A DNA stretch of 26,612 bases. It comes from a virus (taxonomy: Duplodnaviria > Heunggongvirae > Uroviricota > Caudoviricetes). The stretch lies in the IMG/VR virus record IMGVR_UViG_2541047923_000008. The stretch is one strand, 5' to 3'. The position numbers and the translations under genes are program-made. Below the pieces are notes generated by a model. It was not told where the DNA came from. It searched no databases and saw only the letters and a program-made list of their open reading frames with translations. Shown in pieces: positions 439-22,566 of the stretch; the stretch's first letter is position 1; the number at the start of each line of letters is the position of its first letter.

Positions 439-1179
439 TTAACTGGCGGTGACGTTGATTTCTGCAACCGCAGCAAACTCACCATTACCGGATACGACCG
501 GAATGTTGACCTTGCCTGCAGCAACACCTTTCACGGTGATGGTCATACCACTGACCGACACGGTGGCTTTTGTTTTATCCGCAGACACCGCACGGAAGCT
601 CTTGTCGGTTGCGCCTTCCGGCTGGAATGCCACGGTCAGCGTCGTGCTCTGCCCTTTAACCACCGAGGTGCTGGCAGGCGTCACGGTCATGCCGGTTGCC
701 GCTGTTACCGTGCTGCGATCTTCTGCCATTGACGGACGGCCCACATTGGTGACCTTCACCGTACGGGTGATCACTTCCTTCGCTGTCACCGCCTTACCGA
801 TGCTGCTGACCCAGCCGCGGAACACATCGACCGTGCCGTTCGGGAAGCGGATTTTATAGGCACGGGTATCACCTTCATTAAACCACGCCAGCAGCGCCTG
901 CTGCCCCTGCTCTCCGGGCATCCACGCCAGCGTGAAGCTGGTATCTCCGGCTGATTTCTGCCCCTGTCCGGTCGCAGTCCAGTCCGCATCTTCATCATCG
1001 AGATAGCTGTCGTCATAGGACTCAGCGGTCAGTTCGCCGGGCGTCAGGTCTTTAACCTTTGCCAGACGCGACCAGTCAACGTCTGAAAGCGGGTTTGCGT
1101 AAGGGTCGCCGCTCCCGTTATAAACCCACAGTGTGGTCCCGGCCCCTTTCACCGGTGCCAGAGGATTTGGTGTTGGCAT
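439..1179 (-). CDS. V: Major tail tube protein gpV
   Basis: ORF 439..1209; from the internal Met ([20 protein letters not shown]...) the protein matches lambda gpV including the C-terminal Ig-like region; start placed at 1179 by alignment to lambda V. Confidence 0.88.
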
Positions 1180-1186
1180 ATCGTCC

Positions 1187-1582
1187 TCACATTTCATAGG
1201 TAATGACATAAGTCAGATCGGCTGAACTCCACAGGCCCGCATCATCGTCGCGCCGGTAGTCATAGCCACTGGCCACCATACTGGTGATCAAATCTGACAG
1301 TGCCGGGATATCGCTCATCACCGGATAAATCCGGGACTCCATCCACGCATCCAGCTCTGAATCCGGCACATGAGCAGGCAGGAAAACTTCGATATGCAGC
1401 TCCGCCTGCCAGGTATCGCTGTCCAGCTCTTCGCCCGTGTATTCAGCGCCGGTGAGATAAACGGCAACTGCCGGAAAATCCGCCTCATCAAAAACAGCGG
1501 GGCGACCATCAAAAAACGTCGCCCCGGTGTCATGCCTCTCCAGTGCATCCAGTACGGCTGCACGGATATCAGTATGTTTCAT
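1187..1582 (-). CDS. U: Tail terminator protein gpU
   Basis: 131-aa [29 protein letters not shown]... matches lambda gpU; gene order Z-U-V conserved. Confidence 0.9.
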
Positions 1583-11916: not shown

Positions 11917-12122
11917 TTCATTTTCACTTTCTTAAATCTAACGACAGATGGCTAACATTTAAGTATTGTGAAATATTATCAAATGTAATCATCATTGATT
12001 TACAAAAGATACATTTTGCCCCGAAAGGATTTCTGTCAGAAACATCAAAAGATGATGTTCTATACTGAGAACCATGGCAACACGGGCATCTAAAGTGAAT
12101 ATGGTTTGTAATATTTTCTACC

Positions 12123-12335
12123 TCAAAGTGCCACTACATGAACAGCTGCAGGGCCTTTAGGTCCGTTCTCAATACCAAATTCGACTTCCTGATTCTCAGT
12201 TAACGTTTTGAAATCGTTGCTCTGAATAGCTGAGAAATGCACAAACACATCTTTGCTACCATCTTTCGGCGTGATGAAACCAAAACCTTTTTCAGGGTTA
12301 AACCATTTCACTAAACCAGTCATTTTGTTAGACAT
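12123..12335 (-). CDS. Cold-shock protein, CspA family (CspI/CspB-like)
   Basis: [38 protein letters not shown]... contains the RNP1 motif KGFGFI and RNP2-like VFVHF of the cold-shock domain; about 360 nt of non-coding sequence upstream, consistent with the long csp 5' UTR. Confidence 0.85.
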
Positions 12336-12698
12336 CATTATTACCTTTTGAAGAAGTTAGCCCTTGGGCAGAATGGTCCGAAAAAAAATATCAGAGAGAA
12401 AAACCAACAAGAAAATCTCAAGAGGTACAAATAATAAAATTATAACAATGACTGCTTCAGATAATTTTGTAACAAACCAGAACACCATTAACGCATGATT
12501 AACCAACCATAGCAAGGATTACTTTTGTAAAGAAAAACACACGAATGAAACAATAGCTTTATTTATTAATAAAACGTGTCATTCTGTCTAATGACCTTTT
12601 ATCTTACCCTTAAGATTTCAAGGATTTTGACTCATGGAAGAGTCCTTTTTATTTAAATTTCACATTCAGCGCTAAAAATAATCCGATTTAATATTAAT

Positions 12699-13726
<1,028 letters not shown>

Positions 13727-13839
13727 GGATATTTATCAGGATTTATCGGCTTCAAATCCCCGGATATGTTAAATCTTACCTCACCAGTGATGGGCACTGG
13801 CGGGAGGAGGATGTCAATCTGATAAACACAGAGGTGACT

Positions 13840-14100
13840 ATGGATTACACAAATCTACCAAAACAAACTTTTGCTGATTTAATCGCACTCAGGCAAGCAG
13901 TCGTAGCTCTAATCAACTTGTTGCCGGAGAAGGAAAAGGAATTAGTTAAAGCGCTTCTTAACAGAACTGCCGCCGATTTTTCATCATATCCACTGACAGA
14001 TGACCTTGCGGACCTTCCTGAATTAATTGCAGCGTCCGCCATTAAGCTTACTGAAGAGATTTACCCTCCTCAAAAATCTTCACAAAATTCCTGCGAGTAA
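13840..14100 (+). CDS. Orphan 86-aa protein of unknown function, inside the lysis cassette on the opposite strand
   Basis: ORF 13834..14100; ATG at 13840 preceded by AGAGG (5-nt spacer); followed directly by a strong intrinsic terminator; no recognisable motifs, acidic and helical-looking. Confidence 0.5.
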   Translation: MDYTNLPKQTFADLIALRQAVVALINLLPEKEKELVKALLNRTAADFSSYPLTDDLADLPELIAASAIKLTEEIYPPQKSSQNSCE

Positions 14101-14118
14101 CTTCAATGCAATAATCGT

Positions 14119-14154
14119 AAAACGCCGCAAACTGCTCATCGCGGCGTTTTTTTT
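14119..14154 (+). terminator. Rho-independent terminator (CGCCGC stem, 12-nt loop, T8 tract)
   Basis: AAAACGCCGC-loop-GCGGCGTTTTTTTT immediately after the stop of the 13840..14100 gene. Confidence 0.6.
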
Positions 14155-14348
14155 CATCTTCAGAAGGGATCAGCACCGACAATTTTTTATTCAGATCAGC
14201 GACGCTGCCCTCCAGTTTTTCAATGGGCGATTCAATATCATCTTTTTCTGACCGCAATGCCGTCGGTGGCGTCTTCAGAGAACCAGTAGATGATATGACC
14301 TTTATATACTCACTATAGCATTGGTGGGATATTCCAGAGGAGGTCATC

Positions 14349-15482
14349 ATGCATTCGGAAAATATTGCGGCTTACGTCGGGCTGGATGTGCATAAAGAAA
14401 CGTTGGCGGTTGCTATTGCTGCACCTGAACGGCTTGGCGAAGTTCGTTATTATGGTACGATTAACAACGAAGCCCAGGCTGTACGTCGATTATTTCAGAA
14501 ATTGCAGGGACTTTACGGAAACATTCTTTCCTGCTATGAGGCTGGCCCCTGTGGTTTTGGGCTATATCATCAACTCACAGCGATGAATATAAAATGCCAG
14601 GTTATTGCCCCTTCCCGCATACCAAAATCACCGACAGACAGAATCAAAAATGATCATCGGGACGCAATTTCTCTCGCCAGGTTACTGCGGGCTGGAGAAC
14701 TTACCCCTGTCTGGATCCCTGACCTGACTCATGAAGCTATGCGGGATCTAATCAGAGCCCGTGCAGCAGCTAAACGAGACAGCAGAGTTGCCCGACAGCG
14801 AATTCTGAGCATGCTATTGCGAACAGACAAACATTATGCAGGAAAGCACTGGACAGGAAAACATCGAACCTGGTTAGCTAATCAATCATTTAGTCAGCCA
14901 TCTCAACAGATTGCTTTTCAACACTATTGTCAAAGTCTGGAGCAGATTGAAGATCGCATACTTCAACTCGACCAGGAAATATCTCGCCTGTTACCTGAGT
15001 GGTCTCTGTGCAATCTGGTCTGCCAGTTGCAGGCTCTTAAAGGTGTTGGTCAGCTAATTGCAATAACTCTGGTTGCTGAACTGGGTGATTTTTCGCGATT
15101 TTCCAATCCCAAACAGCTCATGGCTTTTCTGGGACTGGTGCCAGGTGAATATTCCAGTGGAAACAGTATTCGTCCCAGAGGAATAACAAAAGTTGGAAAC
15201 AGCGAACTGAGACGTCTGCTTTACGAAGCCGCCTGGTCTTATCGTACACCTGCAAAAGTTGGGGCATGGCTTATATATTACCGACCGGACTCTGTAACAC
15301 AATATTCCAAAGATATTGCATGGAAAGCTCAACAACGATTGTGTTCTCGTTACCGAAGTCTGACAGCAAAAGGGAAAAAATCACAAGTAGCCATTACGGC
15401 GGTGGCTCGTGAGTTGACTGGATTTATGTGGGATATTGCACTTGCTGCCCAATCATCATTCAGTCAGCAGAAGCAAAATTAA
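14349..15482 (+). CDS. IS110-family (DEDD) transposase/recombinase
   Basis: 377-aa ORF; N-terminal VGLDVHKETLAVAI motif typical of the IS110-family DEDD domain and C-terminal helix-hairpin-helix-like region (LKGVGQLIAITLVAELGDFSRF); strong GAGGAGG Shine-Dalgarno. Confidence 0.85.
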   Translation: MHSENIAAYVGLDVHKETLAVAIAAPERLGEVRYYGTINNEAQAVRRLFQKLQGLYGNILSCYEAGPCGFGLYHQLTAMNIKCQVIAPSRIPKSPTDRIKNDHRDAISLARLLRAGELTPVWIPDLTHEAMRDLIRARAAAKRDSRVARQRILSMLLRTDKHYAGKHWTGKHRTWLANQSFSQPSQQIAFQHYCQSLEQIEDRILQLDQEISRLLPEWSLCNLVCQLQALKGVGQLIAITLVAELGDFSRFSNPKQLMAFLGLVPGEYSSGNSIRPRGITKVGNSELRRLLYEAAWSYRTPAKVGAWLIYYRPDSVTQYSKDIAWKAQQRLCSRYRSLTAKGKKSQVAITAVARELTGFMWDIALAAQSSFSQQKQN

Positions 15483-15484
15483 AC

Positions 15485-15655
15485 CCTGAAGCAGTCAGAC
15501 ACGGAATGAGTGATCCTCGTAAAAGAATTCAGGGAAGCCAGAATGCGCTAATACCTGCACGTAGAAAGAGGCCAGCTCACTGCGTAAATCGTCATGGGGC
15601 TAAAATCCCCGAATAAGAGTTTGTAAAATCCAAGATACAGTCTGACTGTTTCAGG
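15485..15655 (+). ncRNA. Candidate structured non-coding RNA closed by a 16-bp inverted repeat immediately 3' of the transposase; possible IS1111-type guide (bridge/seek) RNA
   Basis: CCTGAAGCAGTCAGAC at 15485-15500 pairs with GTCTGACTGTTTCAGG at 15640-15655 (15 Watson-Crick pairs plus one G-U) enclosing about 139 nt. Confidence 0.35.
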
Positions 15656-15710
15656 TTCTTTAATCCGCGATATAACGAAGCTCCCGGAGCTGCGTAAGGT
15701 CTTTTTGGGC

Positions 15711-16046
15711 TTAATATTTGACAAAGGTCATAAGAATTCTTCCTGGTAGCTTTCCTTTGTAGGTTATCCACACATTCTGCGCCTCTAAAATTACGGGGCG
15801 CTTTTCCGGCGACTGCTCATCCCCTTCACATAACCCGGCAGCAACATCCAGGAAGACCTGTCTGATGCTCCTTCTGGCTGCTGCCTCATAAAACTCCAGC
15901 GCGGCACCTTCAACACGGTCCAGCGAGATGTCCAGGTCAAAAATTTCGCCGTCAAAGCGTTTTTTGTCCCGTAACGCTAAAGTTACCGTAACTTTATTCT
16001 CAAAATTGCGGATCCCTTTCACAATCAGTTCATAGTTTTGAGTCAT
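15711..16046 (-). CDS. YdfR-like small protein between holin and endolysin; the C-terminus may be altered by the adjacent insertion
   Basis: 111-aa ORF starting 4 nt after the holin stop (MTQNYELIVKGIRNFENKVTVTLALRDKKRFDGEIFDLD...); resembles, from memory, the E. coli Qin-prophage YdfR encoded between essQ and rrrQ. Confidence 0.5.
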   Translation of the reverse strand: MTQNYELIVKGIRNFENKVTVTLALRDKKRFDGEIFDLDISLDRVEGAALEFYEAAARRSIRQVFLDVAAGLCEGDEQSPEKRPVILEAQNVWITYKGKLPGRILMTFVKY

Positions 16047-16050
16047 TGAA

Positions 16051-16266
16051 TTACTCTCCCCGTGCAGCCTTACGCTTGTCTTCTCTGATTTTGAAGTACA
16101 GATTTGTCAGATAAGTCAGGAAGCCCAGAACCAGACTCCCCAGTACACCAATCGCAGCCCACTGTGACGGACTGACCTGATCAAGCCACTGTAAAAACCA
16201 GTAGCCAGCACTGCCTGCGGAGGTGCCGTAGGCAATGCCCGTTGAAATTTTGTCCATGGATTTCAT
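16051..16266 (-). CDS. Class II pinholin, phage 21 S-type, with dual-start motif MKSMDK
   Basis: 71-aa [74 protein letters not shown] matches my memory of S21; two transmembrane segments; GGAGGTG Shine-Dalgarno. Confidence 0.9.
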
Positions 16267-16324
16267 AGCCTCACCTCCGCAAATAACGGATGGCGTAGTT
16301 TTACACTGAGAAATGAAAGGGATT

Positions 16325-16350
16325 TGAAAAGAAAAACCCGCAAAAGCGGG
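16325..16350 (-). terminator. Rho-independent terminator on the minus strand (CCCGC-TTTT-GCGGG plus T-tract) between the tRNA cluster and the holin
   Basis: Plus strand reads GAAAAACCCGCAAAAGCGGG; on the minus strand the hairpin is followed by TTTTTCTTTTC. Confidence 0.55.
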
Positions 16351-16557
16351 CGAAACGATATATACAGTAAGGGAAGCACTCTATCCAACAAACCACCCAC
16401 AGTTAATCGGAATAAAAGCAGAGTGCTTATGAATGATCGCCTGCCCGAAGGTTAGTATTTCTGCACAGCAATTTTGCAAAAAAAGCGATCATTCATAACT
16501 TAAACGTCTTTCAGTCACTCCGGGATTTCCCATCATCGCAGACTGAAAGACTCTAAC

Positions 16558-16632
<75 letters not shown>

Positions 16633-16635
16633 ATA

Positions 16636-16711
<76 letters not shown>

Positions 16712-16713
16712 AC

Positions 16714-16790
16714 TGGACCGCCACCGGGGACTCGAACCTCGCACACTCAACTTAAAGGGTTGACGCTCTTTCCTGATGAGCTAGTGGCGG
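16714..16790 (-). tRNA. tRNA-like gene, possibly tRNA-Lys (UUU) or a degenerate tRNA pseudogene
   Basis: Reverse complement CCGCCACTAGCTCATCAGGAAAGAGCGTCAACCCTTTAAGTTGAGTGTGCGAGGTTCGAGTCCCCGGTGGCGGTCCA; good acceptor, D and anticodon stems, but C at position 33 and one T-stem mismatch. Confidence 0.4.
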
Positions 16791-16791
16791 C

Positions 16792-16867
16792 TGGTGGCCC
16801 TTGCTGGATTTGAACCAGCGACCTGGCGATTATGAGTCGCTCGCTCTCACCACTGAGCTAAAGGGCC
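16792..16867 (-). tRNA. tRNA with anticodon CAU (Ile2/lysidine-type or Met), ileZ-like as in lambdoid Stx phages
   Basis: Reverse complement GGCCCTTTAGCTCAGTGGTGAGAGCGAGCGACTCATAATCGCCAGGTCGCTGGTTCAAATCCAGCAAGGGCCACCA; resembles E. coli ileX-type tRNA as recalled; anticodon loop CUCAUAA. Confidence 0.7.
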
Positions 16868-20281: not shown

Positions 20282-20437
20282 TTACTCCTCAGGTTCGTAA
20301 GCTGTGAAGACAGCGACCTCCGTCTGGCCGGTTCGGATTCGTACCTCGCAGAGGTCTTTCCTCGTTACCAGTGCCGTCACAATGACGGTTAAACAGATGA
20401 CGATCAGGGCGATTAACATCGCCTTTTGCTGCTTCAT
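20282..20437 (-). CDS. hok: Hok-family membrane toxin (type I toxin-antitoxin)
   Basis: 51-aa product MKQQKAMLIALIVICLTVIVTALVTRKDLCEVRIRTGQTEVAVFTAYEPEE matches my memory of HokD/RelF; the ORF track shows a 19-codon in-frame upstream extension. Confidence 0.85.
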   Translation of the reverse strand: MKQQKAMLIALIVICLTVIVTALVTRKDLCEVRIRTGQTEVAVFTAYEPEE

Positions 20438-20652
20438 AGCCTGCTTCTCCTTGCCTTTCGGCACGTAAGAGGCTAACCTAGATTTGCCGTTCATAGATTG
20501 AGCCTCAGATTAATGTTAAGCGTCTTGCAGGACGCGTAATGTTAACTGGGGCTTTTCTCTATCTGCCTTTGGTGTTCATGCCTGAGGCAGATAGCCTCAA
20601 GCACCCGCAGCAATTCTACTTAACTCACGTCACCTCGCCAATATAAAATCAA

Positions 20653-21231: not shown

Positions 21232-22566
21232 ATGTTTAGCTTAATCATGGCCGGAGAACCGGACGTTTTTGACCGCTGGCCGTGTATGGACCCTGGGCTT
21301 AAAGAAGGCGAGGAAAGATTCTCGATGTCCCGCATGCTGGAAGGCACCCCAAGCGATATTTACAGTAAATTAACACCAATAAGACCCGATACCTTAAGAG
21401 AACTCGCCAAGCTACCAGTATTGTTCATGACCGAAACTTATACAAAAGATGATGAATATGATACAAACAAGTACATCAGGATCAGACTTGGGGAAATAAG
21501 AAACTTACGTAAAGATGGTGGCGATATTTTATTTTCTTTCAAGATTAATCATAATTTTGGAGAAATAACGAATCCCCAAACGACATTATATAAAGAAACC
21601 CTAGGGCTAGGATCTTTCGGGTTAAGTCGTACACATTGGGCAGTAAAAAATAAGGATTTAAATATTGTTCTGGAATCACTTGGTTTAAACAAACAAAATA
21701 GCCAACTGAAAGGTACAATCAAATTAAAAAAACAAACATACCCAGTAGTCGAGAATATTATAGATTATCTTAGTTTCATAAAGAAAAACTTTCGTGATGG
21801 TCTCATTACCTTTTATCGTGGACACTCTAAAAGCTCATATGAGCTTGTCCCCTCTCTTTACAGAAAAAATCAAAACGGGACGTACAGGCATCTTGCTTCA
21901 GAATCTGATTTAGTACGTGAAATACTCAGCGCAAGACCAAATGAATTTAAGGAGGATAAATTTACGATTGATAAACTTGTCCGCATGCAGCATTATGGCT
22001 TGCCTACAAGACTCTTAGACATTACATCTAACCCACTGATAGCATTATATTTTGCTTGCTGTTCGAACCCCGATGAAAACGGACAGGTGATTTCGTTTTC
22101 AACAAATAGAAAGAAAATTAAATATTTCGACTCAGATACAGTGAGCTGTATAGCAAACTTATCACTTTTATCTTACGAAGAGTTGGAAAAATTGTCCTCC
22201 TCTGATTCCAGAAAAGGTAATATGGAGTTATCTGAACTCACGGATAAACTTGCAGACCTTATACAGAATGAAAAATCATATTTCAGAAACAGAATAATTC
22301 CTGATGACTTAAGGAAAGTTGTTTTCCTTAAGGCTAAAATAAATAATGAACGCATACAATCTCAGGCAGGAGCTTTTCTTCTGTTCGGACTTGATCCCAT
22401 TTTACCGGAAACAGATGCTGAGTTTCCTCTTAACAGAGTGGAGATAGCGAACAAAAATAAAATTCTGGAAGAGCTGGCGCAGCTTAATATATCCGAAAGC
22501 ACTGTATATCCCAGCATGGAGAAAACGGCAGCAGAAATTGCAACAAAGTTTTTATCGGTATCATAA
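21232..22566 (+). CDS. FRG-domain protein with an uncharacterised N-terminal domain of about 190 aa; candidate prophage accessory or defence gene
   Basis: 444-aa ORF with AGGAG Shine-Dalgarno 6 nt upstream; contains the FRG-family motifs as I recall them: FYRG (aa 194-197), QHYGLPTRLLD (aa 253-263), NERIQSQAGAF (aa 371-381); AT-rich, opposite strand to the surrounding phage operon. Confidence 0.8.
   Translation: MFSLIMAGEPDVFDRWPCMDPGLKEGEERFSMSRMLEGTPSDIYSKLTPIRPDTLRELAKLPVLFMTETYTKDDEYDTNKYIRIRLGEIRNLRKDGGDILFSFKINHNFGEITNPQTTLYKETLGLGSFGLSRTHWAVKNKDLNIVLESLGLNKQNSQLKGTIKLKKQTYPVVENIIDYLSFIKKNFRDGLITFYRGHSKSSYELVPSLYRKNQNGTYRHLASESDLVREILSARPNEFKEDKFTIDKLVRMQHYGLPTRLLDITSNPLIALYFACCSNPDENGQVISFSTNRKKIKYFDSDTVSCIANLSLLSYEELEKLSSSDSRKGNMELSELTDKLADLIQNEKSYFRNRIIPDDLRKVVFLKAKINNERIQSQAGAFLLFGLDPILPETDAEFPLNRVEIANKNKILEELAQLNISESTVYPSMEKTAAEIATKFLSVS

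Follow-up and report, generated by a model that had tools for sequence, protein, structure and literature searches.

The lysis cassette of the viral record IMGVR_UViG_2541047923_000008, the whole 26,612 nucleotides (nt) of which are referred to here as the window, raises the question of what separates its holin gene from its endolysin gene. The cassette is of the Qin/P21 type, lies on the minus strand and is arranged in the order holin, YdfR-family gene, spacer, endolysin and Rz/Rz1. Between the holin open reading frame (ORF; 16051..16266) and the endolysin ATG at 13726 there is a gap of 2,324 nt (13727..16050), in agreement with the approximately 2.3 kb given in a preliminary description of this DNA. 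That description further proposed that a stop-free minus-strand frame of 43 codons directly preceding the endolysin is the 3' end of a YdfR-like gene, the 5' part of which is encoded at 15711..16046, and that the gene was split by the insertion of a plus-strand block of about 2 kb. The analysis presented here retains the insertion but assigns the 3' end of the gene to a different place. Very probably, a single copy of the insertion sequence (IS) ISEc45 has integrated into the long ydfR gene of the cassette, whereas the 43-codon frame is made up of native, non-coding leader and spacer DNA and is not a gene fragment.

ISEc45 within the long ydfR gene

The extent of the inserted DNA was derived from a comparison with an empty site. 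Megablast of positions 13100..16300 against 5,426 complete Escherichia coli genomes did not retrieve the whole arrangement from any of them; in many genomes, 55% of it was matched by two segments lying next to each other. In strain H8 (locus L001), window positions 13100..14288 correspond to L001 1501..2689 at 99.6% identity, and positions 15735..16297 to L001 2689..3251 at 90% identity. Since the homology stops at 14288 and resumes at 15735, the extra DNA consists of 14289..15734. A plus-strand insertion thus splits the YdfR-like gene, as had been proposed, but its size is 1,446 bp instead of about 2 kb. The element is identical over its full length to ISEc45 copies in more than 380 records, among them Nissle 1917, ATCC 25922, NGF1 and the 75-kb pAA plasmid of O104:H4, and the matching copies are annotated as 'IS110-like element ISEc45 family transposase'. 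IS1111-type elements are distinguished by inverted repeats in subterminal position and by non-coding DNA that is longer downstream of the transposase gene tnp than upstream of it (Siddiquee et al., PMC11187229). Both are present in the copy studied here, in which tnp is flanked by 60 nt of non-coding DNA upstream and 252 nt downstream. The transposase domains, the full-length identity, and the target site and orientation described below likewise agree with an IS1111-type element.

Excision of the IS in silico joins 16046..15735 to 14287..14048 in frame and reconstitutes an ORF of 183 amino acids (aa). Its product is 97% identical, with a coverage of 100%, to P0001, a database protein of 183 aa that stands for 681 sequences, matches phrog_2091 from end to end (1-183/183, E 3.2e-111), and is 96-97% identical to the products of coding sequences (CDSs) annotated in the phages 2H10 and PhiR63_1. 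The domain score (Table 1), the end-to-end match and the position between a class II holin and the endolysin identify the gene as a member of the long form of the YdfR/DUF1327 family. In the IS-free locus of strain H8, the ydfR-like frame runs past the end that the Prokaryotic Genome Annotation Pipeline (PGAP) calls 'incomplete' and reaches a stop 552 nt from its start. The true 3' part of the split gene, 14048..14287, is contained within a 100-aa ORF (14048..14350). The ORF at 15711..16046 is YdfR-like, as the preliminary description had stated, but only 15735..16046 is native; its last seven codons and the stop (15711..15734) are derived from the IS.

ISEc45 is present in multiple copies in many E. 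coli genomes and was found at this site in none of the 5,426 complete ones, which could be taken to mean that a repeated IS was misplaced into the lysis cassette during assembly. Such an artefact is highly improbable because the exact ISEc45-ydfR junctions occur in three public contigs, including the 1.2-Mb scaffold KE701594.1 (GCA_000460215.1) and a contig of GCA_021357805.1, all of which encode the identical truncated 111-aa product next to the IS. Moreover, both junctions agree with the target motif and the orientation of the element.

Table 1. Features of the lysis cassette and of the inserted element (positions refer to the window)
Feature	Position	Strand	Evidence and remarks
Rz-type i-spanin (DUF2514)	12699..13196	-	PF10721; layout as K-12 rzpQ/rzoQ
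Rz1 lipoprotein ORF embedded in Rz	12749..13003	-	LTSC lipobox
RrrQ-type phage lysozyme (endolysin), 177 aa	13193..13726	-	PF00959; phrog_7; 89% nt identity to K-12 rrrQ
43-codon stop-free frame and TGA	13723..13854	-	Includes the leader, the divergent spacer between the genes and, in antisense, the 86-aa ORF's first 15 nt
51-nt endolysin leader	13727..13777	-	Conserved in otherwise different cassettes (O157, O145, L010, others)
Antisense 86-aa ORF, GAGG Shine-Dalgarno sequence	13840..14100	+	phrog_2572 1-86/86, E 1.3e-53; PGAP CDS WP_001557934.1 in L001
True 3' part of ydfR, codons 105-183 and stop; helical C-terminal extension module	14048..14287	-	In-frame continuation in IS-free L001; reconstitution
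Hairpin of 10 bp with a U-run behind it, resembling a terminator on the plus strand	14119..14150	+	Free energy -14.6 kcal/mol, z = -3.8
ISEc45 (IS110 family, IS1111 type), 1,446 bp	14289..15734	+	100% identity to annotated copies; boundaries set by the empty site L001 and by copies at sites of four other kinds
Left subterminal inverted repeat TATGACCTTT, 10 bp	14294..14303	+	Reverse complement of 15723..15732
ISEc45 DEDD transposase, 377 aa	14349..15482	+	PF01548 (IS110 N-terminal) and PF02371 (Transposase_20); NCBIfam NF033542 'IS110 family RNA-guided transposase', 278.9 bits (cut-off 140)
Non-coding region after tnp, 252 nt, presumed source of the seekRNA/bridge RNA	15483..15734	+	Fold -72.5 kcal/mol, z = -2.7, long closing stem
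Seven IS-encoded codons (LMTFVKY) and stop ending the truncated product	15711..15734	-	Inside the right end of ISEc45
Right subterminal inverted repeat AAAGGTCATA	15723..15732	+	Pairs with 14294..14303
Native 5' part of ydfR, codons 1-104, whole DUF1327 core	15735..16046	-	PF07041, 143.3 bits (cut-off 25), profile 1-88/93 (111-aa ORF)
Class II (P21 S-type) holin, 71 aa, MKSM dual-start motif	16051..16266	-	PF04971, 121.5 bits (cut-off 26); PHROG holin families

The 43-codon frame and the spacer before the endolysin

The frame exists as it had been described. It opens directly after a stop at 13855..13857, comprises exactly 43 codons (13854..13726), and its TGA (13725..13723) overlaps the endolysin ATG (13726..13724) as ATGA. 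The statement that it lacks a start of its own holds for ATG, but within the frame codon 20 is a GTG and codon 34 a TTG. The length of the frame is not beyond chance, as stop-to-stop stretches of at least 43 codons account for 11-14% of all such stretches in the six frames of the window. The ATGA overlap is automatic because the second endolysin codon is AAC (Asn). A search of 5.8 billion proteins revealed none sharing a set of three 5-residue words with the 43-residue peptide, the PHROGs contained no match to it, and comparison with the C-termini of the 103-, 113-116-, 176-, 183-, 211-, 268- and 296-aa variants of YdfR disclosed no resemblance. The 268- and 296-aa variants had been considered as candidates that run to the ATGA and end in the 43-residue peptide; they were rejected, as these proteins end in ...PGLTYLKVRI.

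The attribution of the frame to the split gene drew on its ATGA ending at the endolysin start, and a precedent for such an ending exists in the Qin prophage of K-12, in which ydfR truly stops at the homologous TGA. It is nonetheless refuted by the reconstitution: once an insertion with defined ends is removed, the 5' part continues in frame into 14048..14287, and a full-length member of the family results. The 111-aa ORF and the 43-codon frame do not form one gene; the intact homologues are 183 aa long and end in the module encoded by 14048..14287. IS-free cassettes and viable phages, for their part, retain the same 321-nt spacer including the 43-codon frame. What looked like the remnant of a gene joined to the endolysin is none, and the real 3' half is located 320 nt further upstream.

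The 321 nt that separate the end of the 183-aa gene from the endolysin are 99.6% identical in IS-free E. coli and were found in approximately 312 of the 5,426 complete genomes. The spacer is native because it is present in IS-free cassettes and in 2H10 and PhiR63_1. These plaque-forming phages (NC_049950 and PV340573, respectively) align with the IS-free cassette without interruption (94% identity) and contain a 552-nt YdfR-family CDS, followed by a gap of 321 nt before R in which the intact antisense 86-aa ORF (Table 1) and the same 43-codon frame are found; they differ from the window in that ISEc45 is absent and in that the antisense ORF is unannotated in their records. Without the IS, the layout of the window cassette is identical to that of these viable phages. 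As the spacer is carried by viable phages, the endolysin was never translationally coupled to this allele of ydfR.

In K-12 the situation is different. The Qin cassette (essQ-ydfR-rrrQ-rzpQ/rzoQ) has the same gene order and orientation; the DNA of the holin, ydfR codons 1-69, the endolysin and Rz is 86-89% identical; and the last ~14 nt including the ATGA are common to both. However, K-12 ydfR encodes 103 aa and ends at the ATGA in a true coupling junction, whereas the gene in the window encodes 183 aa. In place of about 87 nt of K-12 sequence, the window has 653 nt of native DNA, which comprise the rest of the 183-aa gene, the antisense ORF and the leader, and in addition the 1,446-bp IS. The proposal that the ATGA is the coupling junction of an upstream gene therefore captures the homology of the last ~14 nt to the K-12 ydfR-rrrQ junction but not the position of the real ydfR stop, which is 321 nt away. 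No upstream ORF with its own start codon ends at the TGA of the ATGA; the upstream gene stops at 14048..14050. The homology of the frame to a YdfR C-terminus is confined to the ~14 nt common with K-12.

The shared nucleotides could be an ancient vestige, in that the 14-51 nt directly ahead of the endolysin ATG derive from the 3' terminus of an ancestral ydfR that extended as far as the ATGA. Stops, indels and module swaps would then have cut off the end of ydfR, and the sequence would have been kept as a leader for the initiation of endolysin translation. This scenario is compatible with the insertion of ISEc45 into the long ydfR gene, but in itself we regard it as rather unlikely. Support comes from K-12, where the TGA is the ydfR stop, and from O157:H7 (L008 1199..1255), in which the TGA of a 114-aa ydfR lies in the ATGA frame and is followed by 17 sense codons (RLNISRDLKSINPDKYP); a 1-nt deletion in the window removes the O157 ydfR stop. 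Arguing against a coding origin are the four versions of the leader, among which substitutions are located mostly at first and second codon positions and thus lack a coding signature. In addition, the leader peptide is contained in no database protein, and 17 open codons are well within chance.

A functional upstream ORF that starts at the GTG or the TTG and couples ribosomes onto the endolysin start via the ATGA would fit the lack of an obvious Shine-Dalgarno sequence before the endolysin, and both in-frame codons as well as the stop overlapping the ATG are in place. We give it very little credence. The TTG is absent from the O145 and L010 leaders, the region around the GTG is not conserved outside this type of cassette, neither codon is preceded by a Shine-Dalgarno sequence, and in the search of 5.8 billion proteins no such peptide had been called in any genome. 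The 51-nt leader is intergenic in O157, O145 and other cassettes. The region of the frame is most simply read as a conserved non-coding translation-initiation region.

The 86-aa ORF on the opposite strand is probably a gene, judging from its profile match and its annotation in strain H8. It is intact in eight phage records and is annotated in PhiR12/PhiR5 phages, and its 3' end overlaps that of the long ydfR gene by 53 nt. The 90-aa antisense ORF that occupies the corresponding position in cassette L010 is unrelated to it. The hairpin at 14119..14150 begins 19 nt past the stop of the 86-aa ORF and could be its terminator. It lies inside the conserved ydfR codons for KRRDEQFAAF and is very stable on both strands (z about -4); the version on the minus strand is not followed by a U-tail. 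Of the traits of a moron, an accessory gene with a promoter and terminator of its own within a phage operon, the 86-aa ORF shows the full-length phrog_2572 match, the Shine-Dalgarno sequence and this hairpin with its U-run, but neither a sigma-70-like promoter nor a signal of purifying selection.

Target site of ISEc45 and consequences for lysis

ISEc45 is inserted at GAACCAGTA^AATTCTTCC (the caret marks the insertion point), between codons 104 and 105 of the long ydfR gene and antisense to the late operon. Copies elsewhere are flanked on the left and right, respectively, by GAACACGTA and AATTTTTCT in the IS66-family tnpC, which is the commonest site, by GAACATAAA and AGTTTTTAT in a second IS66 variant, by CCAACATA and AATTCTTTT in hsdS, and by CATCATA and AATTCTCTT in yqhC. 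All five sites, the one in ydfR included, share A^A(A/G)TT(C/T)T, are used in one orientation and display no multi-base duplication of the target. Because the flanks of the five sites agree in one orientation, the insertion into ydfR fits the site and orientation preference of ISEc45. A scan of genome contigs with the 23-nt right end of ISEc45 yielded no matches from which further sites could be taken.

The IS1111-type element ISEc11, whose seekRNA has been characterized (PMC11187229), resembles the ISEc45 copies in its subterminal repeats and its long non-coding region after tnp. ISEc45 enters sites that resemble ..ACnTA^AATTyTT.. in a fixed orientation, and no multi-base duplication results. 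Whereas the usual site of ISEc45 is inside the tnpC of IS66-family elements, here a look-alike site in a prophage gene was used. The insertion of ISEc45 into ydfR was presumably guided by RNA and would then provide an example of an RNA-guided IS110-family element at an off-consensus target. An Rfam search of the whole window at the gathering score, and of 13700..16100 at E<=10, retrieved no bridge RNA or seekRNA family and only hits at chance level.

Several observations weigh against this overall reading or against parts of it. When candidate guides were sought by k-mer matching and by a scoring scan over the five sites, the best 8-mer, AAAGAAUU, was complementary to target positions +1..+8 in the right flank with a score of 33/40, but 19% of shuffled sequences scored equally well, so that the mapping of a seekRNA guide onto the A/T-rich target is no better than that of shuffles and not significant. 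At the junctions, a single flanking A (14288 or 15735) is either duplicated or ambiguous and is not assignable to the IS or to the target. The empty sites closest to the window reach 90-97% identity on the ydfR side, none being identical to it, so that its exact progenitor is a deduction. For the 86-aa ORF, coding is not backed by a signal of selection: compared with phage PhiR12_2 there are 12 differences, with three synonymous and eight non-synonymous codon changes, which are too few to be informative. Nor was a sigma-70-like promoter found upstream of this ORF.

Two further observations concern the ends of ISEc45. A TTGACA hexamer, a perfect -35 sequence, is located at 15718..15723, just inside the right repeat and 11 nt from the right tip. 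Circularization of ISEc45 would place it 16-17 nt upstream of the TATGAC at the left end. Junction promoters have been described for ISEc11 and ISEc21. A hybrid outward promoter composed of this TTGACA and flanking DNA was considered and rejected, as no -10-like hexamer occurs at the proper spacing. Behind the ISEc45 copies in yqhC and in the IS66 tnpC there is an additional, incomplete right end (117 bp, L013 2047..2163, and 172 bp, L014 2047..2218, respectively), such that the right tip is joined to the element's own internal non-coding sequence. These double right ends suggest self-targeted insertion or recombination within the right end of the IS.

The following course of events is proposed. 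The ancestral cassette would have consisted of the holin gene, the 183-aa YdfR-family gene, the 321-nt spacer with the antisense ORF and the 51-nt leader, the endolysin gene and Rz/Rz1. ISEc45 would have integrated in its usual orientation between codons 104 and 105 of ydfR and split the gene into 15735..16046 (5') and 14048..14287 (3'), so that the expressed product would be composed of 104 native and seven IS-encoded residues. As the preliminary description had noted, late minus-strand transcription must cross the insert antisense, which is borne out by the geometry of the locus: 1,446 bases antisense to tnp are added, and the untranslated stretch of late transcripts before the endolysin is extended from 321 to 1,984 nt. 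Late transcription would originate downstream of Q and, antiterminated by Q, would read through ISEc45. Prediction yields no terminator-like site for the minus strand of the IS. Polymerase modified by the Q protein of lambdoid phages ignores terminators. On both grounds, lysis is expected to be largely retained, although possibly weakened, all the more so because the endolysin of this cassette, as in the viable phages, never depended on coupling to ydfR.

Every component of this event is known, and the event itself, the insertion of an IS into an accessory gene of a prophage, is of an ordinary and already-known kind. It adds one more case to the traffic of IS elements into prophage lysis modules. 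Other Qin-like modules contain an IS2 between the holin gene and ydfR (NZ_AP027783) and an IS3 inside the holin gene (NZ_CP091026); these are independent insertions of other IS families at other positions and, in contrast to the ISEc45 insertion, without site specificity.

The holin-endolysin slot and the surrounding prophage

The proteins of the YdfR family are built of modules: an N-terminal one, conserved as far as ...KGKLPGRITGSLKTPP, is followed by divergent tails, and the total length varies from 103 to 296 aa. Since in-frame indels separate the 176-, 183- and 211-aa forms, the C-terminal extension is argued to be translated. An AlphaFold2 model of the 183-aa protein has a mean predicted local distance difference test (pLDDT) score of 56.7, with values of 70-88 for residues 1-72 and below 50 for residues 73-129. 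It places the insertion point at residue 104 in this low-confidence linker, past a beta3-alpha N-domain. A Foldseek search of the model against the PDB retrieved no match with E<0.1, TM-scores were below 0.25, and no functional lead was obtained. Residues 1-72 of K-12 YdfR are the part reported to bind RNase E's catalytic domain (PMC13232886). The truncated product retains the N-terminal module as a whole and loses the C-terminal extension. Its 111 aa are close to the length of the natural short YdfR variants of 113-116 aa.

The extension module (LNKKLS..PSED..KRRDEQFAAFYDYC) is also encoded as a separate ORF after the holin gene in an O145 prophage (L009), where a 162-aa ORF (580..1068, plus strand) follows the holin gene and lacks DUF1327. 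The rest of the holin-endolysin gap in this prophage is filled by a 233-aa antisense ORF (817..1518, minus strand) without a PHROG match. The region from holin to endolysin gives the impression of a hot spot at which variable accessory genes are found.

A broader interpretation, toward which we are sceptical, regards the holin-endolysin slot of P21/Qin cassettes as a modular accessory locus in which ISEc45 turned the long YdfR into a functional short isoform, in a lysis-competent prophage with altered handling of late mRNA. According to this interpretation, the RNase E-binding N-domain of YdfR may be joined, after ...GRITGSLKTPP, to interchangeable C-terminal modules, one of which also stands alone; antisense ORFs may often accompany the slot, and ISEc45 may have been directed by RNA to a site that resembles its IS66 target.

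In IS-free E. coli genomes, including strain H8 (L001 2449..3000) as well as L020 and L021, PGAP flags this allele of ydfR as 'incomplete; missing C-terminus' and limits the annotation to 336 nt. This pseudogene call on an intact 183-aa allele looks like a systematic mis-call of the long allele, and the label could mislead similar scans.

The neighbouring genes conform to a P21-type cassette of holin, signal-anchor-release (SAR) endolysin and spanins, with an S-type holin, a phage lysozyme and an Rz that contains an embedded Rz1. The ydfR start codon is located 4 nt past the holin stop, in a layout that matches that of K-12, H8, O157 and the phages. An Ala/Leu-rich segment visible in the translation of the endolysin N-terminus suggests that it is SAR-like. 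The rest of the window encodes CI, CII, a replication protein, Ren, hok/sok, RusA, Q and four tRNAs, as well as lysis genes, terminase, portal, protease, and major head and tail proteins, such that the window, apart from the IS, looks like a complete lambdoid prophage.

Some features of the surrounding DNA deserve mention. Four tandem tRNA genes (Gly-UCC, Thr-UGU, Lys-UUU and Met-CAU; 16558..16867, minus strand) are situated between the gene of the Q antiterminator and the holin gene, and a terminator-like hairpin (16336..16354, minus strand) is found after the tRNA genes, directly upstream of the holin gene. Directly downstream of the spanin genes, a 71-aa cold-shock protein is encoded at 12123..12338 together with a cspA-type thermoregulator 5' untranslated region (12077..12493, minus strand; RF01766, 107.5 bits); cspI is likewise located in Qin. 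A match to the sok antitoxin RNA (20432..20606, minus strand; Rfam RF01794, 111.7 bits) indicates a hok/sok-type toxin-antitoxin locus in the early region of the prophage. Between hok/sok and ren, a 444-aa ORF (21232..22566, plus strand; phrog_4962, function unknown) runs against the surrounding early genes and is a candidate accessory or defence gene.

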